Sequence record: NC_023593.1
Strand: one strand, 5' to 3'
Source of the DNA: Escherichia phage KBNP1711
DNA: 64,000 nt
Part shown: positions 1 through 54,271 of the stretch, one piece after another
How the letters are laid out: each line of letters begins with the position of its first letter
Numbering within the stretch: position 1 is the first letter of the stretch
Made by a program: the position numbers and the translations under genes
Notes under the pieces: generated by a model
Seen by the model: the letters and a program-made list of their open reading frames with translations, nothing else
The model's database searches: none
What the model was told of the DNA's origin: nothing

Positions 1-673
1 TCAGTACGGTTCCTCAGTCTACTACGGTGGTGGTGATTTACCAACTGGTATTGGATTCTACAGCGGGGACACGTCACCTTTTCCGGGAGGTAATGGGGCA
101 CCCTTCACATATGCGGAGATAATGACTATTGCTGAAGGTGGTCGTGGAGGTAACTGGTCCCAAATAGGGTTCTCTACTATCACATATGAAGCCCCTCGCT
201 ACAGACAAAGGACTAGTGACCCTTCTTTAATCACAAACTGGCGTGACTTCTTAGTAAGAGATTTGAACACTACCGTAGATGTTAATGGTTTTGTTAAGAT
301 TGCATCACCTATAGTCAAACTAAAATCTGACGGGTCTTCTGAAGTCAATGACCAAGCCCAAGGAGTAACAACCGAAAGATTAGATGTTGGTGTTTATAAG
401 ATCTCTGGAGTTCTAGGTTTTAACTCAGACCCTTCTTGGGGAGGTAATGGTGGCGGTTTCTCTATCCCTCAAAACTCTAATGGTTTGCCTTTGTTATGGG
501 TGGATTACGAAGTTGATGAAGAAGGTGATATTACTCTGAAAACTTACCATCGAACTCACGAGGGAGTTCCTTCTTTTGCAAGTAATGTAATAGAAGGTGT
601 GGTGGATGGAGAACCTATTGACATTCCAGAAGGACGTTGGGTAGATCTTCGTGTAGAGATGCCAGCCGAGTAA
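1..673 (+). CDS. virion protein, C-terminal part (5' end outside window); likely tail fiber/receptor-binding module
   Basis: Frame is open from base 2 to the stop at 671-673 (track ORF 122..673 is the Met-internal part); Gly/Asn/Ser-rich; directly upstream of a tail fiber gene. Confidence 0.45.
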   Translation, partial: QYGSSVYYGGGDLPTGIGFYSGDTSPFPGGNGAPFTYAEIMTIAEGGRGGNWSQIGFSTITYEAPRYRQRTSDPSLITNWRDFLVRDLNTTVDVNGFVKIASPIVKLKSDGSSEVNDQAQGVTTERLDVGVYKISGVLGFNSDPSWGGNGGGFSIPQNSNGLPLLWVDYEVDEEGDITLKTYHRTHEGVPSFASNVIEGVVDGEPIDIPEGRWVDLRVEMPAE

Positions 674-682
674 ATAATATAT

Positions 683-701
683 GCTCCCTTCGGGGAGCTT
701 T
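683..701 (+). terminator. stem-loop gctccc-ttcg-gggagc followed by TTT (terminator or RNA processing hairpin)
   Basis: Perfect 6-bp GC stem with TTCG loop read directly after the stop at 673. Confidence 0.3.
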
Positions 702-713
702 AAGGAGATTTTA

Positions 714-2840
714 ATGTCTAGAGAATTAATGCCCAAATCTGGCATAATGATGCCTCATGTTGTAATTAACCGAGATGCTGCGGTAGTGGGTGTTTCCACT
801 ATTGACGGTATTGCTGGTGCTGTAGATTTAACAGGAAAGTATCTACAGAAAACTGATGCTGCTGATACATACCTAACTAAAACAGATGGAGCTACTAAAA
901 CTTTTGTAACTGATGCAATAGGCCCTATCATGTCTGGTGCTTTGTTTAAAGACGACCCTGTTGTTGCAAACGATGTAGCTTTCCGTTCAGGTGGGGCCAA
1001 TGGTGTAGAATCTGTTGATATGATCAAAGTCACTCCGGAGAATACTATCAAGTTAGGTAGTTATGCTTCTTCCGTTCAGGGTGTAGAGATTCACTCAGCT
1101 GGTCGTCTTCAGGTTGTTGATCAAAACGACAGTGGTATAGAAACTAAATACCCTGTGTACTCTAAGCGCTATCGTCCTGAGATTGAAGATTTACCTTTTG
1201 CTGCAATTGGTTCTTATGTTAAGGATTCAAAAGGTCGTACTGTTGGTGTAACCCGTACCGGTATCAACTCTGATATCAAACAACTTACACAGAAAGTCAC
1301 TTTTACTCAACCTGTAACCGTAGCCGATGCTGTAGGCGATTATGATGCAGTGACACTGAGACAGCTTAAGAATCAGGGTGGTGGTTCTGGTGGTCCTACC
1401 ATGAGTGGTATTTCTAACTTTGGTATTGGTGATTTTCACCTACGTGACAGTCGTGCTTTCATCCCCGCTTTTGAGGTAGTCTCTGACGGGCAGCTTTTGA
1501 ATCGCGCTGACTACCCTGATTTATGGGCTTATGCTCAACTCTTAACTCCAATCAGTGACTCCCTTTGGTTAGAAGACCCTTACCAGAGAGGTAGGTATTC
1601 CACAGGGGACGGCTCCACCACTTTCCGTGTTCCAGACCGAAACGGTATTCAGCCTAATTCCCTTCCGGCTCTTTATGGACGAGGTGATGGTGGTGCTTCC
1701 GCAGCTAATGGTCAAGTGTTTGATTCTGCAGCCCCTGACATTATTGGCTCTGTTGCAGCATATTCTGCTGGAACTTATGCCCAGCTTTTTGGAGTAGCTG
1801 CCAATGCATTTGAATCTAGCAATGCCTTCTTTCCTCAAGGTACAGGGGATACAATACCTCCGGGGTCTGGGCCAGTCGATGGTCGATATAACACTATTGA
1901 GTTTAAGGCTTCCAGATATAATGGAGTTTATGGTCGTAGTAACACAGAAATCATGGGTCGTAACTTTGTCGGTGTGTGGACTATCCGTGCTCATGGTGGA
2001 TTCACTGCTGCTAATACTTCTTGGTCTGTTATTAACAGTGACACTGTTTTGCCAAACACTGGAACTTCTATTAACGGTGGCTCTATTATATCTGAGTACA
2101 AAGTGGGCACAAATGTTGAAGGTTCTGCTTCGTTCAAAATGGCCGGTGCAGTTGGGGCTGCCTATTCTGCTCGTATTACAGTTTCCAATAAAACTTCAGG
2201 ATCTAGTAAAACTTTTGATTTTTTAAGCGATGGAGACCTAAGCGTTCCAGGAAGCTTGCTTACTCTAGAAGGCAATGTCGACGCTAAAAGTCAACTGATA
2301 TCTCGAGGTGGTCGGATAGTTCTTGTAGGTAATAATGATCAAAGCCAATCTTTTATTGAATTTAACAGCAACAATGGTTATACTGTGTACGGAAGATTTT
2401 ACTCAGAACGTGATGGTGACATTACCCTATCAACATCTACAGCCGGAGCTAATCAAAAATATTTTCAATTTCTCAAGGATGGAAGTGCTACAAGCTCCGG
2501 AGGGTGGATCAATTCTTCTGATATCAGAATTAAAGAGAATATCGAACCTATTAAAAACCCACTAGACAAAATGAGGAACATTAAAGGTGTTTCTTGGAAA
2601 CTTAAAAATGGAGGGAAGGTAGGATTTGGTTTTATAGCGCAAGACGTCGAAGTAGATTTCCCTGATGCGATTTCTGTTTCGGGTGATATGGAGATGGCAG
2701 ACGGGTCTTTAGTGAAGGATGTGAAGTCTGTTAATACCTATGGTGTTGCAGCTGCTTTACACCACGAAGCTATTCTTGAACTTATGAAGCAGGTTGAAGA
2801 CCTCAAGAAAGAGGTGTCAGAGCTTAAGTCTAGTAAGTAA
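714..2840 (+). CDS. tail fiber/tailspike protein with C-terminal intramolecular chaperone (peptidase S74-like) domain
   Basis: C-terminus SSDIRIKENIEPIKNPLDKMRNIKGVSWKLKNGGKVGFGFIAQDVEVDFPDAISV matches the self-cleaving chaperone domain of phage fibers; ATG at 714 preceded by AAGGAG; track ORF starts upstream at 681. Confidence 0.7.
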   Translation: MSRELMPKSGIMMPHVVINRDAAVVGVSTIDGIAGAVDLTGKYLQKTDAADTYLTKTDGATKTFVTDAIGPIMSGALFKDDPVVANDVAFRSGGANGVESVDMIKVTPENTIKLGSYASSVQGVEIHSAGRLQVVDQNDSGIETKYPVYSKRYRPEIEDLPFAAIGSYVKDSKGRTVGVTRTGINSDIKQLTQKVTFTQPVTVADAVGDYDAVTLRQLKNQGGGSGGPTMSGISNFGIGDFHLRDSRAFIPAFEVVSDGQLLNRADYPDLWAYAQLLTPISDSLWLEDPYQRGRYSTGDGSTTFRVPDRNGIQPNSLPALYGRGDGGASAANGQVFDSAAPDIIGSVAAYSAGTYAQLFGVAANAFESSNAFFPQGTGDTIPPGSGPVDGRYNTIEFKASRYNGVYGRSNTEIMGRNFVGVWTIRAHGGFTAANTSWSVINSDTVLPNTGTSINGGSIISEYKVGTNVEGSASFKMAGAVGAAYSARITVSNKTSGSSKTFDFLSDGDLSVPGSLLTLEGNVDAKSQLISRGGRIVLVGNNDQSQSFIEFNSNNGYTVYGRFYSERDGDITLSTSTAGANQKYFQFLKDGSATSSGGWINSSDIRIKENIEPIKNPLDKMRNIKGVSWKLKNGGKVGFGFIAQDVEVDFPDAISVSGDMEMADGSLVKDVKSVNTYGVAAALHHEAILELMKQVEDLKKEVSELKSSK

Positions 2841-2846
2841 TCTAGT

Positions 2847-2865
2847 AGCCCCTTCGGGGGCTTTA
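2847..2865 (+). terminator. stem-loop agcccc-ttcg-ggggct after tail fiber gene
   Basis: Perfect 6-bp GC stem, TTCG loop, weak T tract. Confidence 0.3.
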
Positions 2866-2936
2866 GTAGTGAGTATGTTCAAGAAGTAATGAAACTACTA
2901 TATCACAAAAGGAATACACATAGGAGATACGAAGAG

Positions 2937-3155
2937 ATGAAAATGATGAAACAAATCAGTTATGGGTTAGCTTGTGTTGCTACCGGTTTTGCTGTGTCAG
3001 TGGCTGTTCCTGTTAACGCTGTGCATCCTCTGGTAACACAACCTGCACCTGTTGAGAAATTGAGTGCATCATGCAAGCAGCGTACAATTCAAAATAATCT
3101 TGTGGTTATTTGTCCGGACTCTGATTCTAGTGCTCTGAGAAATATGCTTCAGTAA
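2937..3155 (+). CDS. small exported protein (signal peptide, two Cys)
   Basis: MKMMKQISYGLACVATGFAVSVAVPVNA signal-like N-terminus; TAGGAGA 9 nt upstream of ATG 2937. Confidence 0.4.
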   Translation: MKMMKQISYGLACVATGFAVSVAVPVNAVHPLVTQPAPVEKLSASCKQRTIQNNLVVICPDSDSSALRNMLQ

Positions 3156-3185
3156 TTCAGGGCTGACTAGAAAGGGAGGTGAAAA

Positions 3186-3677
3186 ATGGATAATGTCGCA
3201 TTGCCACCGATACAACTGAGCTTAAGCCCAGAAGGGATGGAATTCATCATGAAGCATGAAGGTATGAGAACTCGTGCTTACCAAGATTCCGCAGGTATCT
3301 GGACGATATGTGTTGGGGCTACGCGCGATATGAATGGGTATCCAGTTAGACAGGGATTAACGTATTCTATAGAGGATTGTCTAGCTCTGCTAGATAGAGA
3401 CACACAAGACTCTGTTCGTGCCACTCAGAAAAATATTAGGGTTCCTTTGTTAACCCACGAGTTTGATGCTCTCACCTCTTTCAACTTCAACGTTGGTGGT
3501 GGAGCTTTATCAACTTCTAAACTTAGGAAAGTTATTAACGGGGATGTGAAGGGTGATGTTTATTCTGAGTTCCTCCGTTGGGATAAAATTACAGTTAAAG
3601 GTAAGAAGATTAGTAGTCCGGGGTTGAAGAATCGTAGAACTGCTGAAGCTGATCTTTACACTGAAGGTAAATACTAA
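3186..3677 (+). CDS. lysozyme (glycoside hydrolase family 24-like muramidase)
   Basis: EGMEFIMKHEGMRTRAYQDSAGIWTICVGAT motif typical of phage GH24 lysozymes; GGGAGGTG RBS. Confidence 0.8.
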   Translation: MDNVALPPIQLSLSPEGMEFIMKHEGMRTRAYQDSAGIWTICVGATRDMNGYPVRQGLTYSIEDCLALLDRDTQDSVRATQKNIRVPLLTHEFDALTSFNFNVGGGALSTSKLRKVINGDVKGDVYSEFLRWDKITVKGKKISSPGLKNRRTAEADLYTEGKY

Positions 3678-3688
3678 AAGGAGTTGTC

Positions 3689-4492
3689 ATGGCAGTAGAA
3701 ACTAATGCTAACACAATTAATGACCTCAACCCCCTGTACCCTCGTGACAGGGATTATCTTTACGAAGGGGCGGCTCAGATTCGCCTTGTTAAACAAGTAT
3801 TGCAGAATACTTTTCCAAACGTAACAGAGCCAGTTCAGTTGGACTCAGATTCTCTCAATATTCTGGCTAGCAAAGTTACCTTTACTGGTGACTCTATGGA
3901 TGTTGGTGGGTTGATGATCAAGAATGCCACTCCGGGCACAGGTGATAGAGATGTTGTTACTAAAGGCCAGATGGAAGCTTTCATGCAGAACTGGATGGCT
4001 AACAAAGTATTCAGAATTGGTTCTTACTATATCACTGAAGAAGATATTAACCCTGGTGATAGTTCTTCTCTTGGTTTTGGCTCTTGGGCTAAAGTGACTG
4101 GCGTTATCATGGGTTCTGGTGTAGTAAACCCTGATGGTTCTGTTCCTAATGCTCAGCGTGTTGAATTCCAAGCAGGTGGTACAGGTGGTCGTGTGTTTAA
4201 CACTGTCCGTTCTGATAACCTACCTCTTGTAACTATTAACGGTTCAAGCTTCTCAGTGTCTAGTAACACACACAGTCATAACATGGTGTTTGGTCGTGGT
4301 GACGCAAGTGGTCATAACAGTTCCCCTAACTGGTATAGTCCGGGTGGTGGTTATAATCAGAGAACTGAAAATGATACACACTCTCACACAATCTCTGGTT
4401 CTGTATCTTTTGGTCGTGATGATGTTTCTCGTCAACCAATCAATACTTTACCACCTTTCCGATCTGCACACATCTGGAGACGTATTAGCTAA
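3689..4492 (+). CDS. tail fiber protein with tail-collar-like C-terminal region
   Basis: THSHNMVF...HSHTISGSVSF...QPINTLPPF pattern resembles the phage tail collar domain. Confidence 0.5.
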   Translation: MAVETNANTINDLNPLYPRDRDYLYEGAAQIRLVKQVLQNTFPNVTEPVQLDSDSLNILASKVTFTGDSMDVGGLMIKNATPGTGDRDVVTKGQMEAFMQNWMANKVFRIGSYYITEEDINPGDSSSLGFGSWAKVTGVIMGSGVVNPDGSVPNAQRVEFQAGGTGGRVFNTVRSDNLPLVTINGSSFSVSSNTHSHNMVFGRGDASGHNSSPNWYSPGGGYNQRTENDTHSHTISGSVSFGRDDVSRQPINTLPPFRSAHIWRRIS

Positions 4493-4501
4493 GGAGGAAT
4501 T

Positions 4502-7500
4502 ATGGCGTTATACCCTATAAAATCACTTGGGGCTATCGGTGTTATCGCTGATCAGGCACCAACTGATTTAGCACCTAACGCTTTCACCAACGCTATGAAC
4601 GCTCGGTTTGTTGAGCAGAGAGTTTTTAAGACGGGGGGCAATGCCCCTCTTTCTTACGTGGAAGAAGACAAAGATCTGACTCCACTCTCTTTTGTCTCCA
4701 TGCCTTTCGATTATTATAGCGCAGGAAATAGCTTCCTTGTAGTAGGTACAGATAAGAAGTTATATAAACTGACAGATGAAAGCTTAACCGATATCAGTCG
4801 TAAAGTTGCTACGGTAACTAAGAAAGCTTCTGCTATCATAAAGATCTATCCAGTGGTCTCAAGGATTGTTCCTAAAGAGAGCACTGTCACAATGAACTTT
4901 AACCAGACAAAAGAGTTAGAAGTTCAGGTTTTTCCAGAGGATGCTAATAATGCCAATCTGACTTGGGAAGTAAGTAACCCTTCTTATGCCAGTATTGCAG
5001 TAAATCCTACAGATTCTAAAAAAGCCACCCTTACTACGTTGTCTACAGAAGGAACACTGTCCATTACTGTTTCCACTGAAGATGAATCTGTGACAGCTCA
5101 AATCTCCGTTAACATTGTTGATGGGGATACGGGTATCTTCTTGAGTCAAGACACAATCACAATTCGAAGAGGTGGTACAACAACTCTTACTGCTATCTCA
5201 GGTAAGACTCCTATCACTTGGATTAGTAGCAATGGTGGTGCTTTGTCTGTGACACCTAATGCCAATACACTAACTACTGTTCTCAATGCCATGGGAGAAG
5301 GAACTTTTACTGTTACAGCTGATAATGGCTCTAAGTCTGCTACCTGTACAGTTAATGTGATACCTCAGATTGATTCTATTTCTCTGAGTCAGACAGATGT
5401 TCAGATGGATAGAGGGACTCAGTATGTTCTAACTGCAACAGTCAATCCTGCTGATGCTCCTAATAAAGCAATCACTTGGACTTCCTCTAATCCTAATATT
5501 GCTACAGTATCAGGGACAAGTACAGAGGCTACAATTACTGGACTTCTGGCTGGGTTTACAGAGATTACAGCAGTAACAGAGGAAGGTAGTCGTTCAGCTG
5601 TTTGTACTGTTCGTGTCAACCTAGCAGGTAGAATGCTAAATACCAGAAGTCTAGCGATGGCTGCTAGTGCACCTCTAGTAGAAGAGTTCAAAGAGGAAGA
5701 AGAACCAGTTGTACAGAATGAAGAAGTTGTTTACTTCATGTCTGACTCTATGGGAATTGATACCTCTGGCATGGCTGAAGGCAACAACTTCTTTGACTAC
5801 TCTAACGTATTCGATATGGAAGGTTTTGCTCGTGCTGCGGAGAACTCAAGAGCTGTTCCTCTGACAAATGTGACATTAGATATTGTTGAAGCTTCTCTAG
5901 ATGTAGGTGAAGAGATTGTCATAACTGCTACAGCAGCTCCAGAAGGAGATTACTCTTATCAGTGGGTTGTTGATAAAAGTGGTTATGTTTCTACTACCTC
6001 TACAACTGGTAGGTCTTTGAAACTTACAGCTGTTCGTAAAGGCGAGATTAAAGTTACATGTACGGCGAGTCAGATGACTCAAAGAGATTACGATGCTTTT
6101 GATGATTACCCTTGGTATCATGCAGTAATCTCTAACTGTGCAGTAGCGACAACTCACTATGAAACTCCTCAGGTTAAAGAATTCGAATCTGAATACTTTA
6201 CAGACCTTCCGGGATGGGGTGAACAGACAGTTGTTGATGGTGACGGAAACCCTTCTGTTCGTAAATTTAACTGGAAGTGCGAAAGGGTTAGAGCTTTTAA
6301 CAACAGGCTATTTGCTCTGAATATGAGAGAATCTAATGCCTCTGGTGTTACCACTCATTATCCTTTACGTCTTCGCTGGTCTAACTTTGCGAATGAGAAC
6401 AAGGCTCCTACTTTGTGGGATGATTATGCTTACGACCGACTGACAACTTCTGATCTTTCAGCGAACATTGTTGGACAGACTGAAGCTCTTGAGAATGGTT
6501 ATGCAGGATATATTGATCTGGCTGACTCTAATGGTAGTTTGATTGATGTTCTCCCTTTGAAAGATTACTTATTTGTTTACACCGAGTTTGAAACCTACAT
6601 TGGTTCTCCTACTAACAACACATACCAGCCTCTGATGTTTAAGAAGCTGTTTAATGATTCAGGTATTCTTGCTCCTGAGTGTGTGGTTGAAGTAGAGGGT
6701 GGTCACTTTGTTGTAACCCAGAACGATGTGATTCTTCATAACGGTGCATCTAAGAAATCTATTGCATCTAACCGTGTCAAGAACATGCTCATTAATGAAG
6801 TGTGTTTGGTAAACCCTCTAGCGACTAGAGTTCACTTGCACCAAGATAAGAAAGAGGTTTGGGTCATGTATGTTGGGCCGGGAGAGCCGAAAGAAAGTTT
6901 TGCTTGTACAAAGGCTGCGGTCTGGAATTACGAGTTTGACACTTGGTCTTTCCGTACTATCCCTTATGCTCAGTGTATTGGTCTTGTAGATCCTCCTGTT
7001 CTCGAAAGAGGTCCAGTGTGGACTGACTTCCAAACTATCACTTGGGATGACCCTGCTATTGATAAGCTGGTGTGGAGAAAGGATGCAACTAACTTCCGTC
7101 AGAGAATTACTATCGTAGGCTCTTTCTTAAGGGGTTTCTATCAAGTAGATGTTGGTGCTTTGGATTATTTCTATGACAGAGCGAATGACAAAATAATAGA
7201 GCGTCCTCTGGAAATGAGGTTAGAGAGAACGGGGATTGATTTTGATAACGTTACTAACGAATGGAATCAAAAACATATCAACCGATTCAGACCTCAGACT
7301 ACAGGTTCTGGTACGTATATCTTTGAAGCTGGAGGTAGTCAATTCTCTAATGAGTATGGTCACAACCACACAACTAAGAGTTATACGATTGGAGTTGATA
7401 GGCACGTAGCTGTGAGACTGAACCATCCATACCTATTCTATAATGTTATAGATAATGATGTTAACAGTAACGCAGCCATAAATGGGCTGACAATAGAGTT

Positions 7501-7522
7501 TAATGTTGGCGGTCGAAGATAA
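4502..7522 (+). CDS. large virion structural protein with tandem Ig-like (Big_2-type) domains
   Basis: 1006 aa; repeated ~80-aa units ending ...SATCTVNV / ...SAVCTVRV typical of bacterial Ig-like group 2 domains. Confidence 0.55.
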   Translation: MALYPIKSLGAIGVIADQAPTDLAPNAFTNAMNARFVEQRVFKTGGNAPLSYVEEDKDLTPLSFVSMPFDYYSAGNSFLVVGTDKKLYKLTDESLTDISRKVATVTKKASAIIKIYPVVSRIVPKESTVTMNFNQTKELEVQVFPEDANNANLTWEVSNPSYASIAVNPTDSKKATLTTLSTEGTLSITVSTEDESVTAQISVNIVDGDTGIFLSQDTITIRRGGTTTLTAISGKTPITWISSNGGALSVTPNANTLTTVLNAMGEGTFTVTADNGSKSATCTVNVIPQIDSISLSQTDVQMDRGTQYVLTATVNPADAPNKAITWTSSNPNIATVSGTSTEATITGLLAGFTEITAVTEEGSRSAVCTVRVNLAGRMLNTRSLAMAASAPLVEEFKEEEEPVVQNEEVVYFMSDSMGIDTSGMAEGNNFFDYSNVFDMEGFARAAENSRAVPLTNVTLDIVEASLDVGEEIVITATAAPEGDYSYQWVVDKSGYVSTTSTTGRSLKLTAVRKGEIKVTCTASQMTQRDYDAFDDYPWYHAVISNCAVATTHYETPQVKEFESEYFTDLPGWGEQTVVDGDGNPSVRKFNWKCERVRAFNNRLFALNMRESNASGVTTHYPLRLRWSNFANENKAPTLWDDYAYDRLTTSDLSANIVGQTEALENGYAGYIDLADSNGSLIDVLPLKDYLFVYTEFETYIGSPTNNTYQPLMFKKLFNDSGILAPECVVEVEGGHFVVTQNDVILHNGASKKSIASNRVKNMLINEVCLVNPLATRVHLHQDKKEVWVMYVGPGEPKESFACTKAAVWNYEFDTWSFRTIPYAQCIGLVDPPVLERGPVWTDFQTITWDDPAIDKLVWRKDATNFRQRITIVGSFLRGFYQVDVGALDYFYDRANDKIIERPLEMRLERTGIDFDNVTNEWNQKHINRFRPQTTGSGTYIFEAGGSQFSNEYGHNHTTKSYTIGVDRHVAVRLNHPYLFYNVIDNDVNSNAAINGLTIEFNVGGRR

Positions 7523-7527
7523 CAACT

Positions 7528-7556
7528 AAGGGGCTTCGGCCCCTTTTCTTGTTTTT
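7528..7556 (+). terminator. rho-independent terminator (aaggggc-ttcg-gcccctt + T run)
   Basis: 7-bp GC stem, TTCG loop, followed by ttcttgttttt. Confidence 0.55.
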
Positions 7557-7573
7557 AAACTTTGGAGGTACTT

Positions 7574-8542
7574 ATGGGTGCTGGAGGTTTTCGTAAGAAT
7601 ACTGGACGCAACAACACCACACTTCCCTATAATGTTGGGTTTCTTAATAGGGTAGAGGATACAGAAACATATAACACCGCTGTCTATGATGAATTACAGA
7701 AAGTCAGTACAGCAACTAACCAAATGTTCCAAGCAATCGACGAGATTCATGATGAGATTGATGTTCGTATCAAAGCTCTTAATGCTATGAACCTCCAGTT
7801 TGATGAGCTTGAGAATAGAATTACTACAGAGATTGAAACAGCTATTGCAGATATTATCACACAGATGGGTAATTTATCTACTGAAGATATTTGGGATAAT
7901 TCAACCGTTCCTCCTACTAAACTGGATGGTACGGTAGCTGGTATTAAAACTAGCATTGAAGGGAATGATGTAAAGATTCAAACTGTTCAGGGGATTGTTA
8001 ATGAGCAGGGAGAGGAGATTGCTTTAGTTCAAACAGAACTTTCTAACATTAATAGCAGTCTTTCTCAGTATATGAAGCTCACGGACTACGAAGCTACTTG
8101 GGGTGTTAATTCTAATGTTAATGGTCGATACGCTGGAGTTAAATTAACTAACAACGGAACGAACAGTGCTTTCCAAGTGACTGCTCAGAAGTTTATTGTC
8201 GGTGATGGTAGCTCTGGTAACACCCCTTTCGTCTTTGAGAATGGTAGGGCTAGAATGGAGTTCGCTGATATAAAGAATGTCAATATCACAACTGCCATGA
8301 TTGCTAATGCTCGTATTCAGTTTGCTCAGATTGATAACGTGTGGATTACTGACGGTCAGATTGCTAACCTTACTGCTAACAAGATTACTGCTGGTTCTAT
8401 GAGTGGTTCTAATTGGAGACTTACAGTAGGTGGGGATTTTGTGATGGGTGGTACAGGTGGTTCTCAATTGTGGATGAATGGTAATAGAATAGATTTTTAT
8501 GATGGGAGTGGGACTCTTCGCATAAGAATAGGGAGTTGGTAA
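7574..8542 (+). CDS. putative tail fiber/tail-associated protein
   Basis: GGAGG RBS then ATG 7574 (track start 7562 is TTG); N-terminal coiled coil, Gly/Asn-rich beta-type C-terminus. Confidence 0.45.
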   Translation: MGAGGFRKNTGRNNTTLPYNVGFLNRVEDTETYNTAVYDELQKVSTATNQMFQAIDEIHDEIDVRIKALNAMNLQFDELENRITTEIETAIADIITQMGNLSTEDIWDNSTVPPTKLDGTVAGIKTSIEGNDVKIQTVQGIVNEQGEEIALVQTELSNINSSLSQYMKLTDYEATWGVNSNVNGRYAGVKLTNNGTNSAFQVTAQKFIVGDGSSGNTPFVFENGRARMEFADIKNVNITTAMIANARIQFAQIDNVWITDGQIANLTANKITAGSMSGSNWRLTVGGDFVMGGTGGSQLWMNGNRIDFYDGSGTLRIRIGSW

Positions 8543-8543
8543 T

Positions 8544-9578
8544 ATGGCATATGGAATATGGACAAGACCTGTTGGTCCAGGTCCGGCGGCACCTGCTGAC
8601 ATTTACATCGATAGTGGTAGCACGTTTCCTCAACTCAAGAATAGAGTTAGCGGTAACTTTGCATTTAGTGGAAACATATGTGACCTCCCTATAAACGGGT
8701 GGGATGGAAGTGGTCAAATAGTTATTGTCCCGACAGGTTCTGTGGTATGGGAAAGATACATACCGCCTAATGTGACCTCAGACGTATACTGGATAAACAA
8801 TATCTCAGTTATTAATAACTCTACTTTTCGAGTTACTATGGATTATAATGTTAATGGGTGGGTCTTTGATATGGCTTTTAATGTATATCAGATATGGCCT
8901 AGAGCTAATAGAAACTACGGAATTACTTTTTCTAACACAGCTGATTACTTCTCTATTTCTGACTCTGGCACTGTTGGTCAGTGTATCTGGGCTTGGGAAG
9001 GTGATATAAACGGCTCTCTTCAGATACCAGATATTGGAGGTTTTGATATGAGCCGGGCAACTGTTTATGCAAACTGGAGTCACGGAGGGGCTGGGTTGTT
9101 GTATAACCCATCTAACAGAGTTGTTTATGTGTACCAAAACAGATCTCACGATAATAGTAACACAAACCAAACAGGGTCTATTGGTGGTGTTAGGATTGCT
9201 GTTTTCTGCGATGGTTCTGGAGTACCAACTCACAACGGTGGCCTAAATATCTTTTCCCCAAATGGGTCTCAGTGCGTATTCTCTACCTACAGAACCCCTT
9301 TTAGTGTTGAAGGGTTTATGCCTATGAGTGGAGGTAATACATCTCTGGCCTATCCAATGATACCACTGTCTTATGGGGCTGGGGCTATACGAGGAAGTGC
9401 TAGTGGTTGGTACTTTCAACACACAAGATCTCATATGATGAATGGATCTTCTTTTGGGACAGGGTATGGAAGAATGATATACTCTTGGTCAAATCAGTAT
9501 GATCTCGGTGGTGGGGGTGCTCTAGGATTAAGTATTCCGGTATTAGACGCCAAGAAGATTTTTAGAAGCATACAATAA
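8544..9578 (+). CDS. hypothetical virion protein
   Basis: 344-aa ORF tightly coupled to neighbours in the structural operon. Confidence 0.4.
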   Translation: MAYGIWTRPVGPGPAAPADIYIDSGSTFPQLKNRVSGNFAFSGNICDLPINGWDGSGQIVIVPTGSVVWERYIPPNVTSDVYWINNISVINNSTFRVTMDYNVNGWVFDMAFNVYQIWPRANRNYGITFSNTADYFSISDSGTVGQCIWAWEGDINGSLQIPDIGGFDMSRATVYANWSHGGAGLLYNPSNRVVYVYQNRSHDNSNTNQTGSIGGVRIAVFCDGSGVPTHNGGLNIFSPNGSQCVFSTYRTPFSVEGFMPMSGGNTSLAYPMIPLSYGAGAIRGSASGWYFQHTRSHMMNGSSFGTGYGRMIYSWSNQYDLGGGGALGLSIPVLDAKKIFRSIQ

Positions 9579-17100: not shown

Positions 17101-18582
17101 GTTGGCATGTTCAATAAAGCTAACAAGAACTCTCAGTATGAAGCAGCAGCTAAGCATCTACAAGCTCGTGAAGAACGTCTTACCTCTTTACGTAACAGAG
17201 CAGAAGCTCGTGCTCAAGCGAAAGCTACAGCAGAAGCTGAACGTCAGTCACTCGAAGCTATTGCTGGTCAGAAGACTGAGATAGAGAAGATGTTTGATGC
17301 GTTACCTAAACCTGTCCGCGAGGCTCAGGAAAGCCGTACTCTGAAACAGCTTGCAGCTCACCATGATAAGAACTCCCCTGTTCCTCCAGAACGTTTCCGT
17401 AGTATTATCGAACGTATCCACAACGCAGAGTCTGACTACCTTGATCGTAAGCGTCGTCTCACTGATGCAGAGGAAGATGCTCGTGAAGCTAAGTGGAACA
17501 AGATGTATGAACAAGCAGAGGAGATGAACCGTAAGTTCGATATAGATGCTCGTGTATCTCGTGATAAGAGCCTCAAAGAAGCCCAGGAGCGACAGAATGA
17601 TCTCATGGCAGTACAACGCCAACGTGATGACATTCACAGCCGTCTGGTGCGTTCTATCGAAGATAAGGGCATACCTAAAGCTGATGCTGAAGCATTTGCT
17701 GGTTCTTATATGGATAATCGTTATGCTCTTCTTGAAAAACCTATGACCCCTACCGAACATCAGAATGCTCGTGCACGTATTGAGTCCGATGTAGAGAAGT
17801 TTGCTAAGAAGTATGAAAGCTTGTCTCCTATCGAGAAAGACGTGGTTAAGATTACTGGTGATGTGGAAGGTAAACTGGATGGGTTGGATGCTGAGACTGT
17901 GAAGGCAGTTGAGGAAGCTAGGAAGGTTGACTCTGATATTAAGAAACTTCAGGATGAAGAGTTGGAGATGGAGAAAGTCCGTTCAGCTTTACCTGATGAT
18001 GAAAAGTCTCAGGCAAATTCCGACATTCTGGAAAGCATTAAAAAACAAGAAGATAAGTTTGCAGGGAAGGTTGAGAAGGCATTCTTGGAAGGCAAGGACT
18101 TGAAGGAACTGGCTAGTGTTGCAGAGGTTCTGGATAGGGTTCATGGTGCTGACAAGGCTGGGAACAACCGTAGATTTGTTCGTGCTCTACAGACTGCTGC
18201 TGACAACAAGAAGAAGTATGGTGATAATCCGGTAGCTTGGTTTAGTGCTGATGATTACTCTGCTATTGCTAAACTTGGTGCTGCATCAGCGGGTGGTAAC
18301 AAATCAAGAGCGTTGGAGAAGATCTTTGGTTCTACAGCAGATCAAGCTAAGGCTAAGCTTTTGGGGAGAGATGATGTAGCGAAGATTAGACGTGTGATTG
18401 AAGCGAATCCTGAAATCAAGATTCCTTCTTACAAGACTACTACTCGTCAAGAGTATTTACAGTTCTTGGAGAAGTATAATGATGAGGGAGTGTTGAAAGT
18501 CAAACGTGGTTCTCTGTCTGACAAGTTGGAAAGGAATAAGCGTCAAGCTAGACTTCGTGTTAGAGTTCGCTCGAAAGAGTAA
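14161..18582 (+). CDS. large internal virion/ejection-type protein (1473 aa, Ala/Glu/Lys/Arg-rich, coiled-coil)
   Basis: AAGGAGA RBS; last gene of the + strand operon, immediately before a strong terminator. Confidence 0.5.
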   Translation: MANIKSWEEASKSPKYMNATPEQQAQLREQYKAAGGTIPEDKPVQPQQEERGLVGEFAQGVSNAIESGGASIAASTARGLGGLVEMGENVLGSQTSYGKRIQDNAKQVLEKRMAGIEDGFGKTAGQYAGVAADIGLTVANPALAAGVIAGREAGRAYADQTPEEGEDKSVLDAALVGGANFAAQKILPGFTGTSESTLGRIGQSAASNAVAGAKGGALVGAAEAQNKYGDDTTLANVLEGAIDEGVAGAAYGGAIGGVHGAISRPSPQVFDKTPENVKTDISAEDEAIRSAKNADELREAYSQADTANTASALNLLDQNDFRITDAVAMDSPAAQRILNTDQTRAEKAASSLTERSNIPGLNPLASPSKVKGKAFADNEHNQKQAVAMKDAMADYTKDNTKTLNDVLDNLDRELNDLRVRGDFTGSAIDIKNQTRNDRDFIDAYKNFYTEANRFKARDGEDFNNFVEKATELQKLADNVSPEMKKAIGGLKKLKGMPEGFNPIQDAFTLNNTAKLMSNQDRGWTTLTDDGFREASSPSFVMNTLGAAKYALNRFSSERARSQRARQQDSNSEAIRSLARGDLEVARARSAAAKAREEMEAEPVVDDVQFKTQADDQNMAGSEPSSPATVTEDFSPSPAPLTARDLVAQRRAIRQAEQRRAEEEAQAAQNAPVEPEAPAETLPTRNPLEERRVQEAEMEQQRAAEEAAKAPETPVEEPTAKAEPLPARAPKAPKEAAPEVKPATGVERLAAMSTAARQATKNRAERFARSLYTAGAKAKATAENFLAYKGDPKELMRRIRQEDQANNAARHEEMARNQLASQQGIAAAKSNRVRSAFSDWVKERGLPSEIASKALRAEERGLDGNVSSLDSLKRRAERMYQKERDDEFDRMYREALEENKAFDKKDAPKLKDQKAEFQSEIDSLLESEPLRPAQKDAMRKMMSDFVDGKFKAAEKAGREEALEVGQMKDLWDGFINTYNREVGMFNKANKNSQYEAAAKHLQAREERLTSLRNRAEARAQAKATAEAERQSLEAIAGQKTEIEKMFDALPKPVREAQESRTLKQLAAHHDKNSPVPPERFRSIIERIHNAESDYLDRKRRLTDAEEDAREAKWNKMYEQAEEMNRKFDIDARVSRDKSLKEAQERQNDLMAVQRQRDDIHSRLVRSIEDKGIPKADAEAFAGSYMDNRYALLEKPMTPTEHQNARARIESDVEKFAKKYESLSPIEKDVVKITGDVEGKLDGLDAETVKAVEEARKVDSDIKKLQDEELEMEKVRSALPDDEKSQANSDILESIKKQEDKFAGKVEKAFLEGKDLKELASVAEVLDRVHGADKAGNNRRFVRALQTAADNKKKYGDNPVAWFSADDYSAIAKLGAASAGGNKSRALEKIFGSTADQAKAKLLGRDDVAKIRRVIEANPEIKIPSYKTTTRQEYLQFLEKYNDEGVLKVKRGSLSDKLERNKRQARLRVRVRSKE

Positions 18583-18589
18583 ACAGGAA

Positions 18590-18630
18590 AAGCCCCCAAG
18601 GATATTCTCCAAGGGGGCTTTATTTTTAAA
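18590..18630. terminator. bidirectional rho-independent terminator at the convergence of + and - strand transcription
   Basis: aagccccc...gggggctt stem flanked by an A-run upstream and T-run downstream. Confidence 0.6.
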
Positions 18631-18823
18631 TCTTTTTGTAGGTAATCGTTCCTTCTTTAACTGCCCTCTCATAAGATTCTTTAAACTTACGCATAGCAGC
18701 TATTTTACCTTCTCGGATTTTATCATAATCAGGTTTATCTGTTTTCATGGGTAGTATCCTATTTAAGTTTTAGAAACCATCAAATTCGTCATACATCCCA
18801 GCACTCTTCATTCATACAACCTC

Positions 18824-19078
18824 CTAAATTAAATCATAATATTGAATAATATCTTTCAGAGCAAAGTCACGAATCTGATCTTTCTCTGTATCGTAGGCTG
18901 TCATAATCCAGCAAGGATTCCCGTCATTGTGATAAACGGAAACACCAACTGAAGTTCGGATAGGAATAACGGCTCGGTCTGCAACCTCACCTCTCCAATT
19001 ACGATAGCGAAAGCGAAGAATTTGTTTCGTAGAGACTGGAGCATCAGTTGTTTCCTTTTTTAAATTGTTTTCTAGCAT
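18824..19078 (-). CDS. hypothetical protein
   Basis: Track ORF 18824..19186 trimmed to internal Met to limit overlap with the HNH gene. Confidence 0.3.
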   Translation of the reverse strand: MLENNLKKETTDAPVSTKQILRFRYRNWRGEVADRAVIPIRTSVGVSVYHNDGNPCWIMTAYDTEKDQIRDFALKDIIQYYDLI

Positions 19079-19445
19079 TATTTTCTTCTTGAGTTTTAGT
19101 TTTATGGCAAGGTTCTTTACAAAGCACTTGGAATCCGTGTTTCTCAACAAGTGCCCTCTGAATAATTTCATCCCAAGTAGCTTCATGGTCGATAGGGACC
19201 AGAGGCTCTATATGGTCAATAGCCATTTCTTTAACAGGGTGGTCGTTGCCACACATAGCACATTGATAGTGCATTGCCAGCTTCCCTGTCTTGGGGTTTA
19301 TCTTGCGTTCTGTTTGAGCATCTTTAAGAGCATCGAACATAGGCTTCCACTTCCTAGTCAGAGAACGAATCCCTGACTTGATGAAGGAATTGTATCGAGC
19401 TTCTGTCCAAGTGCCACTACAGCGAGTCTTCTCAACCTTCGCCAT
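19044..19445 (-). CDS. HNH endonuclease
   Basis: CAMCGNDHPVKEMAIDHIEPLVPIDHEATWDEIIQRALVEKHGFQVLCKEPCHKTK contains the HNH His/Asn and Cys zinc ligands. Confidence 0.7.
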   Translation of the reverse strand: MAKVEKTRCSGTWTEARYNSFIKSGIRSLTRKWKPMFDALKDAQTERKINPKTGKLAMHYQCAMCGNDHPVKEMAIDHIEPLVPIDHEATWDEIIQRALVEKHGFQVLCKEPCHKTKTQEENNARKQFKKGNN

Positions 19446-19618
19446 AACCTATATCCATATCATCCTCCTGCCAGACTCGTTTATTAACACGGTGACTAAC
19501 CTTGTCAGCCTTGGGGATACGACCGGTACGTTGATCAAACAGTTGGTGTTTAATCTTCTGATCTTTACGAGTTTCACGGTTAGGTGAAGTTTCATCATAA
19601 GTACGGTAGTTGAATTTG

Positions 19619-20458
19619 TTACCCATTATCAATATCCTTATTCCAAATTTTATCAAGCCATGACCACTCGAAGAGGTCTTCTGGTGTTTGACCTACGAAT
19701 AGGAGACGAGCATTTTCAAGCATCTTTTCTTCCCATTCTGTATCAAACTTCTTATAATATTCCATTCGCACTATATGATAAAGAGTCCACTTATCATTTA
19801 CACCTTGTAAAAGGTTGATAGCGGCTTTCTTTCCAACCCCTTGACGACGGAGTTGTAACTTACCTCCCCACATAACTTCCTCACGTTCACCACAACCGGG
19901 AATGTTATCTGTTCCATCACCAATGAGCATTTGATAAAAGAAGTTTTGCCAAGCAACCTCATCTGATACATAGTGAGGAGGAACCTCTTTCTGTCTTTCT
20001 CCACATGCCCACCGATAGTGCCATCCGGGAGTTATCAATAAGTCTTTGTCTCGTGTACAGATGATAGTGTTCTTGTCAGTTCGCTGTCTTTCTGCTAATG
20101 CATCATCAGCTTCTCTTCCATAAACATCTACATACTCGTAATTGTTTTTAATGTAGTCACCAACGTTCTGCCAGTGGAAAGGTCTTTCTCCCGGAGGTCG
20201 GTTGGCTTTGTATCCTTGCTGCTTTGCTACATCAAAACGGAAATTACCGCCTTCGCTGAAGTAGAAGATTGTCTTTCGACAGCCAGCGCGAGCAATGATT
20301 GTATCAAGTTTGTTTTGAAGTCGTTCAATTAGAAACCCATAATCTACTGGTGTACGTCCTGTATCCAGAAAAGGATGCTCCTGAGTCAGAGCACCCACTT
20401 CGTATCGGAGAACATCAGCATCCACTAGAGCTACTTCAGGATACTTAACGTCTTCCAT
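19619..20458 (-). CDS. 5'-3' exonuclease (T7 gp6-like, FEN/H3TH family)
   Basis: YKANR, TRDKDLL and IGDGTDNIPGCG motifs match 5' nuclease active-site and H3TH regions. Confidence 0.7.
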   Translation of the reverse strand: MEDVKYPEVALVDADVLRYEVGALTQEHPFLDTGRTPVDYGFLIERLQNKLDTIIARAGCRKTIFYFSEGGNFRFDVAKQQGYKANRPPGERPFHWQNVGDYIKNNYEYVDVYGREADDALAERQRTDKNTIICTRDKDLLITPGWHYRWACGERQKEVPPHYVSDEVAWQNFFYQMLIGDGTDNIPGCGEREEVMWGGKLQLRRQGVGKKAAINLLQGVNDKWTLYHIVRMEYYKKFDTEWEEKMLENARLLFVGQTPEDLFEWSWLDKIWNKDIDNG

Positions 20459-54196: not shown

Positions 54197-54271
54197 TGGC
54201 GTCCCCACTAGGACTCGAACCTAGAATGGATTTTTAGAAGAAATCTGTTATATCCTTTTAACTATAGGGAC
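54197..54271 (-). tRNA. tRNA-Arg (anticodon UCU)
   Basis: Hand-folded cloverleaf: 7-bp acceptor stem, D stem GTTA/TAAC, anticodon stem GATTT/AAATC with loop CTTCTAA, T arm CTAGG-TTCGAGT-CCTAG, encoded CCA. Confidence 0.8.

Follow-up and report, generated by a model that had tools for sequence, protein, structure and literature searches.

The gene at positions 714–2840 (+) of a 64,000-nucleotide stretch from Escherichia phage KBNP1711 (NC_023593.1; the whole stretch is hereafter called the window) very likely encodes the distal long-tail-fibre protein of a phiEco32-like podovirus of the Gordonclarkvirinae, one that is cleaved by its own C-terminal S74 chaperone and carries a host-range cassette of two modules. 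A first-pass annotation, made from the sequence without database searches, had described the gene as a tail fibre with a self-cleaving C-terminal S74 chaperone and as a probable determinant of host range. That description is borne out by Pfam, the catalytic dyad, the fold match and a published experiment on the orthologue of phage EP335, all of which agree. The feature is real, its essentials were read correctly, and it is already known. Beyond it, the analysis reveals two hypervariable modules that assort independently, the second of which is coupled to the chaperone.

The distal fibre gene and its product

An open frame runs without interruption across 681–2840 (+), and ATG 714, the start chosen in the first-pass annotation, is the correct one. 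The Shine-Dalgarno sequence AAGGAG (702–707, +), read from the sequence, lies six bases before it, and the homologues, the annotated EP335 gp13 among them, align from the very first residue encoded from 714. An alternative in-frame ATG at 681 was considered and rejected, as it lacks a Shine-Dalgarno sequence, runs into a hairpin at 683–698 and does not correspond to the start of the homologues, which is at 714. The gene ends with the stop codon at 2838–2840 and encodes a 708-residue precursor of 75.2 kDa, which is 100% identical over 708 residues to the deposited 'tail fiber protein' of Escherichia phage KBNP1711, a phage from South Korea whose genome is GenBank KF981730 (76,184 bp; PMC9965538). 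The product matches phrog_6921 end to end (residues 1–707 on 1–737 of 738, 1034 bits), and more than 100 full-length homologues are found at 54–100% identity.

Identity to 117 homologues was computed in 20-residue blocks. The N-terminal part (714–1733, +; residues 1–340) is conserved, with mean identities of 0.69–0.96, and its first 200 residues are best regarded as the attachment region and shaft that would join the proximal fibre. In the full-length monomer predicted by AlphaFold 2 (AF2), the predicted local distance difference test score (pLDDT) falls below 50 for residues 1–249, which makes this part of the model unusable, as is expected when a trimeric shaft is modelled as a monomer.

Modular variation in the probable receptor-binding region

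Downstream of this conserved part, two hypervariable modules flank a short conserved island. Module 1 (1734–1973, +; residues 341–420) has identities of 0.24–0.57 and forms an insert in the published 'Gp12-like RBD1' (RBD, receptor-binding domain); it is a candidate lateral receptor-binding surface. The linker island that follows (1974–2048, +; residues 421–445, VWTIRAHGGFTAANTSWSVIN) reaches an identity of 0.95 in block 421–440 and is likely a recombination joint between the two variable modules. Module 2 (2049–2513, +; residues 446–600) falls again to 0.22–0.55 across blocks 441–600. Its AF2 model shows beta-strands at pLDDT 70–92, and it would be the distal tip, all-beta in structure and published as 'T5-like RBD2', as well as the folding client of the chaperone. 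The chaperone itself (residues 601–708) shows intermediate identities of 0.39–0.54 to the same 117 homologues.

The same boundaries emerge at the DNA level. The first 9 kb of the window best match EP335 (93.8% identity over 84% of the query), among the phiEco32-like podoviruses. Against this genome, the closest in the phage collection, identity is 86% over 35–1645 and 93% over 2699–9000; between 1646 and 2698, only the 85 bases of 1958–2042, at the conserved island, can be aligned. Because the 1646–2698 interval is mostly unalignable to EP335, the distal two-thirds of the fibre appear as a replaced cassette within a late region that is otherwise near-identical.

To quantify assortment, module classes were defined by single-linkage clustering at 70% in 118 proteins. 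This gave 48 classes of module 1 and 22 of module 2, which occur in 77 combinations. The pairwise identities of module 1 and module 2 gave a Spearman correlation of 0.07, against 0.49 for module 2 with the chaperone, values that should be read with the approximate nature of alignments within the hypervariable regions in mind. Individual homologues illustrate the exchange in both directions: P0034 shows 98% identity in module 1 and 12% in module 2, and P0005 shows 49% and 99%, respectively. Modules 1 and 2 assort independently. Each module-2 class, on the other hand, pairs with a single one of six chaperone classes, and this coupling of module 2 to the chaperone is the pattern expected from a chaperone-client relation. 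The data suggest a match between each chaperone and its client tip, whereas module 1 recombines freely. The first-pass annotation had placed the receptor-binding part upstream of the chaperone; a variable region does lie there, but it comprises two independently exchanged hypervariable modules and not a single one.

This two-module variability agrees with a fibre type published in 2025, the 'T-shaped' fibres with dual receptor-binding domains of Gordonclarkvirinae, Wifcevirus and some T5-like phages, which combine a Gp12-like RBD1, a T5-like RBD2 and a chaperone (PMC11990801). Such fibres attach to a proximal fibre, and infection by Gordonclarkvirinae depends on O-antigen (PMC11990801). Examples include Bas87 gp10, Bas99 gp114 and Bas32 gp24 (PMC11990801), and DT57C LtfA is of the same kind. 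The 714–2840 product is about 60% identical to the Bas87 protein and likewise has two variable modules and a C-terminal chaperone. In that work, AlphaFold-Multimer models are the basis for the T shape and for the gp12-like and T5-like folds (PMC11990801); the monomer models obtained here neither confirm nor contradict them. The dual-RBD idea is therefore prior work, published in 2025; the quantified independence of the modules and the tip-chaperone coupling are what is added here.

Tentatively, and at somewhat less than even odds, both hypervariable modules may be functional in receptor binding and set host range by their combination, with the present allele being a recombinant. It has a module 1 of the SGF2/FS2B type (85–89% identical) and a module 2 and chaperone of the EcoN5 type (91–93%). 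On another reading, judged unlikely, the fibre has a single receptor-binding domain, the distal tip (residues 446–600), and residues 341–420 are a tolerated surface loop that has diversified for other reasons, such as drift or stowed-state contacts with the capsid or the short fibre. In its favour, structural tests at residues 250–440 neither confirmed nor contradicted a gp12-like receptor-binding fold. A tail-collar-like motif, GDGSTTFRVPD, lies within residues 255–318, and a Collar domain signal at residues 294–311 recurs at the same position in all ten family members tested, at a sub-threshold 15–21 bits against a cut-off of 24. Comparison of the family profile with T4 gp12 by hhalign returned no similarity (probability 0.2%), with a single-sequence template that is weak; for that reason, this negative does not disprove the published HHpred link between residues 236–422 of EP335 gp13 and the T4 gp12 tip (PMC8217332), which itself speaks for a receptor-binding fold. 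Furthermore, the 48 classes of module 1 among 118 proteins exceed those of the tip and are reshuffled independently, as would be expected where a surface contacts the receptor. Among the BASEL phages, it was the RBD1 phylogeny that host range followed, and not that of RBD2 (PMC11990801).

The S74 chaperone and its predicted cleavage site

Residues 602–652 match Pfam Peptidase_S74 (PF13884) with an E-value of 8.9e-14 and 52 bits, where the gathering score is 22, which puts the match far above chance. The match covers profile positions 1–56 of 58, with profile position 1 at Ser602, and the threshold is also passed by nine of nine homologues tested. The chaperone occupies the extreme C-terminus (residues 602–708 of 708), and the part upstream is a tail fibre by PHROG assignment and homology. 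Both sequence signatures cited in the first-pass annotation are present, SSDIRIKENI at residues 601–610 (nucleotides 2514–2543) and GFGFIAQDVEV at residues 637–647.

The catalytic and cleavage motif S602-D-I-R-I-K607 is encoded at 2517–2534 (+), with the predicted scissile bond between Ser602 and Asp603. The dyad and variability counts were taken from 118 full-length homologues aligned with MAFFT, among which Ser602 and Lys607 are invariant (118/118). The proposal that absence of the Ser-Lys dyad on alignment would speak against the chaperone therefore finds the dyad in place. The residue after the serine is Asp in 102 of the 118 sequences and Gly in the other 16. Cleavage at Ser602|Asp603 would give a 602-residue mature fibre of 63.5 kDa and a fragment of 106 residues and 11.7 kDa (computed masses), encoded at 2520–2837 (+) and comprising residues 603–708 with a long terminal helix at 675–707; the earlier estimate of about 110 residues is close to this length.

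Comparison with other S74 chaperone domains, also suggested in the first-pass annotation, supports the assignment. Against deposited PDB sequences, the family profile matched MyRF ICA (7dc3, 4e-11), S16 gp37 (6f45, 1e-9), 8jov (2.5e-6) and GA-1 gp12 (3gud, 0.012). In these matches the S-x4-K motif lines up, reading SSDRRIK in S16 gp37 and SDERHK in GA-1 gp12, and it aligns also in the deposited chain sequence of DT57C LtfA. The AF2 model of the chaperone (pLDDT 70–90) contains a helix at 616–622, several strands and the terminal helix at 675–707. A Foldseek search with this model gave two meaningful PDB fold matches and no others: MyRF ICA 7dc3 (E 3e-5, TM (target) 0.62–0.65) and the K1F chaperone 3gw6 (probability 0.90).

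Direct evidence of processing comes from EP335 gp13, for which autoproteolytic release was shown by sodium dodecyl sulfate-polyacrylamide gel electrophoresis (SDS-PAGE) and by liquid chromatography-electrospray ionization mass spectrometry, the latter revealing that cleavage at Ser621|Asp622 removes 11.8 kDa (PMC8217332). Ser602 aligns with this Ser621 in the MAFFT alignment. By analogy with this orthologue, the 714–2840 product very probably cleaves itself at Ser602|Asp603. It is improbable that the S74-like domain is instead a degenerate remnant that stays attached as a C-terminal trimerization or coiled-coil cap without autoproteolysis. Cleavage of this allele is indeed argued from an orthologue, relatives such as Bas93 have truncated chaperone domains (PMC11990801), and Gly follows the serine in the 16 homologues noted above; yet the serine and lysine are invariant, this allele has the canonical S-D-x-R-x-K, and the EP335 chaperone, which is 72% identical to its own, cleaves at the aligned serine (PMC8217332).

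The region upstream of the chaperone

The first-pass annotation had likened the chaperone to that of phage endosialidases and suggested structure prediction as a check for glycosidase folds. The likeness holds for the chaperone and does not extend upstream of it, where no glycosidase or beta-helix fold was found. Pfam searches of the query and the homologues tested recorded no glycosidase, lyase or esterase family upstream of the chaperone, and fold searches of PDB and BFVD singled out no glycosidase or beta-helix fold. Every BFVD fold match was to a protein of a tail fibre, baseplate or collar, ECML-117 and DT57C LtfA among them. An enzymatic tailspike that degrades O-antigen or capsule, such as an endosialidase-like depolymerase in which the S74 domain would serve a catalytic domain (beta-helix or beta-propeller) as it does in K1F endoNF, is highly improbable: S74 chaperones were first described on endosialidases and the PAS59 homologue is called 'tailspike' in one database record, but Pfam lacks any such enzyme family here, Foldseek against PDB matches the chaperone alone, PAS59 plaques have no halos (PMC11522302) and the BASEL authors class such proteins as non-enzymatic fibres (PMC11990801).

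Two points weigh against reading the gene as a processed, two-module distal fibre. For this allele, we infer self-cleavage, trimerization, virion attachment and receptor binding. In addition, a strong match to a PDB sequence offers no help: the family profile matches 8hqz (DT57C LtfA 560–1074; E 6e-160) with residues 203–708 as counterpart, and 8hqz was rejected as a solved structure for this region. Only the N-terminus of LtfA is resolved in 8hqz (PMC10713586); as the matched residues lie outside it, the match gives no structural information.

Relation to known fibre systems

EP335 gp13 (Nieuwekanaalvirus) is the counterpart characterized by experiment. It has the same genome position and architecture, follows a 926-residue tail fibre, and is 95% identical over residues 1–200. 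It differs in its overall identity of 63–64%, with 28% in module 1 and 24% in module 2. A GFP fusion of EP335 gp13 bound O157 and O26 cells (PMC8217332); given the low identity of both modules, the receptor specificity of the 714–2840 product is expected to differ from O157/O26. phiEco32 gp15, 61.5% identical to EP335 gp13 (PMC8217332), is placed as a counterpart on the basis of the literature.

SU10 gp13 (P0104), like phiEco32 gp15 a distal long-tail-fibre protein of Kuravirus, is 57% identical over its full length and stands in the same order of fibre, lysis, short-fibre, nozzle and needle genes, but its variable modules are only 17–29% identical to those of the 714–2840 product. Cryo-electron microscopy of the SU10 virion revealed six long fibres of gp12 and gp13 trimers, with the distal protein not resolved in the map, and the proximal fibre, docked on the adaptor, was assigned to gp12 (PMC9509320). 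Together with the 95–100% conservation of residues 1–200, the SU10 cryo-electron microscopy and micrographs (PMC9509320) suggest that the distal trimer would be joined to the proximal fibre on the virion.

The chaperones of K1F endosialidase, T5 pb1, S16 gp37, GA-1 gp12 and MyRF belong to the same family and share the S-x4-K dyad, the C-terminal position and the fold. The client here is a fibre tip, with no endosialidase beta-propeller or beta-helix, and sequence similarity is absent outside the chaperone.

A proposed route from trimer folding to receptor recognition

These comparisons are consistent with the following route of assembly. Three distal-fibre chains would come together into one fibre, with the chaperone (residues 603–708) nucleating trimerization and folding of the distal tip. 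Once the trimer has folded, the Ser602/Lys607 dyad would cut at Ser602|Asp603 and the 11.7-kDa chaperone would leave, as judged from the orthologue. Through its conserved N-terminal region of about 200 residues, the mature trimer would then be attached to the proximal fibre protein at the C-terminus of the latter, and the proximal fibre would in turn dock on the tail adaptor. On the virion, the receptor, most likely O-antigen, would be bound by one or both of the modules at residues 341–420 and 446–600, the former presumably seated inside the tail-collar/gp12-like domain and the latter forming the distal tip.

Genomic surroundings

The proximal long-tail-fibre gene precedes the distal one. Its 3' part occupies 2–673 (+), with 224 codons, is homologous to EP335 gp12, SU10 gp12 and phiEco32 gp14, and matches Pfam Phage_tail_C_2 in its C-terminal part (7e-58). 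Since its frame is open from the first base of the window, the gene is cut by the window edge and not in the phage, and it is no pseudogene. The 'truncated fiber-like gene' noted earlier at the window start is indeed a fibre gene, the proximal one, but its truncation is due to the edge alone. Between the two fibre genes, before the Shine-Dalgarno sequence, lies an intergenic hairpin, GCTCCC-TTCG-GGGAGC (683–698, +; folding free energy −12 kcal/mol, z −1.76), whose sequence is identical in EP335. With its modest fold and no T-run after it, it is not a terminator of the canonical type, and it may act in RNA processing or stability. A promoter and terminator scan of 1–4600 returned nothing above shuffled expectation.

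The lysis genes (2937–3677) lie inside the tail-fibre cluster, between the distal long and the short fibres, as in EP335 and SU10. They encode a holin (2937–3155, +; 72 residues from ATG 2937, a longer frame from 2889 being probably unused) and a lysozyme-type endolysin by family assignment (3186–3677, +). The short tail fibre gene follows at 3689–4492 (+) and encodes a 267-residue protein whose homologue and structural counterpart is SU10 gp16 (PMC9509320), with matches to Pfam Gp10_C (3.3e-9) and phrog_6465 (3e-110). The first-pass annotation had taken it for a second fibre with a collar-like domain, which does not hold: it is a Gp10_C short fibre, and the only Collar signal is the sub-threshold one in the 714–2840 product. 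Short tail fibres are conserved across the subfamily (PMC11990801, S9 Fig), and for this reason the one at 3689–4492 is unlikely to set host range. The nozzle protein (4502–7522, +; 1006 residues) has three Big_2 immunoglobulin-like domains and is homologous to SU10 gp17; the PHROGs label 'tail fiber protein; host specificity' for it is misleading. A tail needle gene, again by family assignment, lies at 7562–8542 (+). The order of proximal fibre, distal fibre, holin, endolysin, short fibre, nozzle and needle matches that of EP335 and SU10 (PMC9509320).

Further along the window, structural and late genes occupy the + strand to about 18 kb, GC skew changes sign at about 18000–20000, and the remainder beyond about 18 kb appears to be transcribed from the − strand. 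The single tRNA, a tRNA-Arg with anticodon TCT, is located at 54197–54271 (−); one tRNA is tabulated for KBNP1711 and most of its relatives (PMC9965538).

Implications for host range and fibre engineering

Much of this system was known beforehand: the sequence is in GenBank, self-cleavage and O-antigen binding of the orthologue are published, and the dual-domain architecture was described in 2025. The additions are small: a cleavage site assigned in this allele, boundaries for module swaps and a measure of how closely tip and chaperone are coupled. Because its variable modules recombine independently, the 714–2840 gene would be the main host-range cassette of the phage group, and it probably sets host range. 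If both modules do bind receptors, this allele could recognise a glycan pair covered by neither parental type, and the one-to-one pairing of tip and chaperone would imply a chaperone tuned to its particular client and so set limits to fibre engineering. Usable swap boundaries are the conserved joints at about residue 340 and at residues 421–445, with the tip travelling together with its own chaperone. The gene is an obvious handle by which the host range of phiEco32-like phages could be predicted or re-engineered against pathogenic E. coli.

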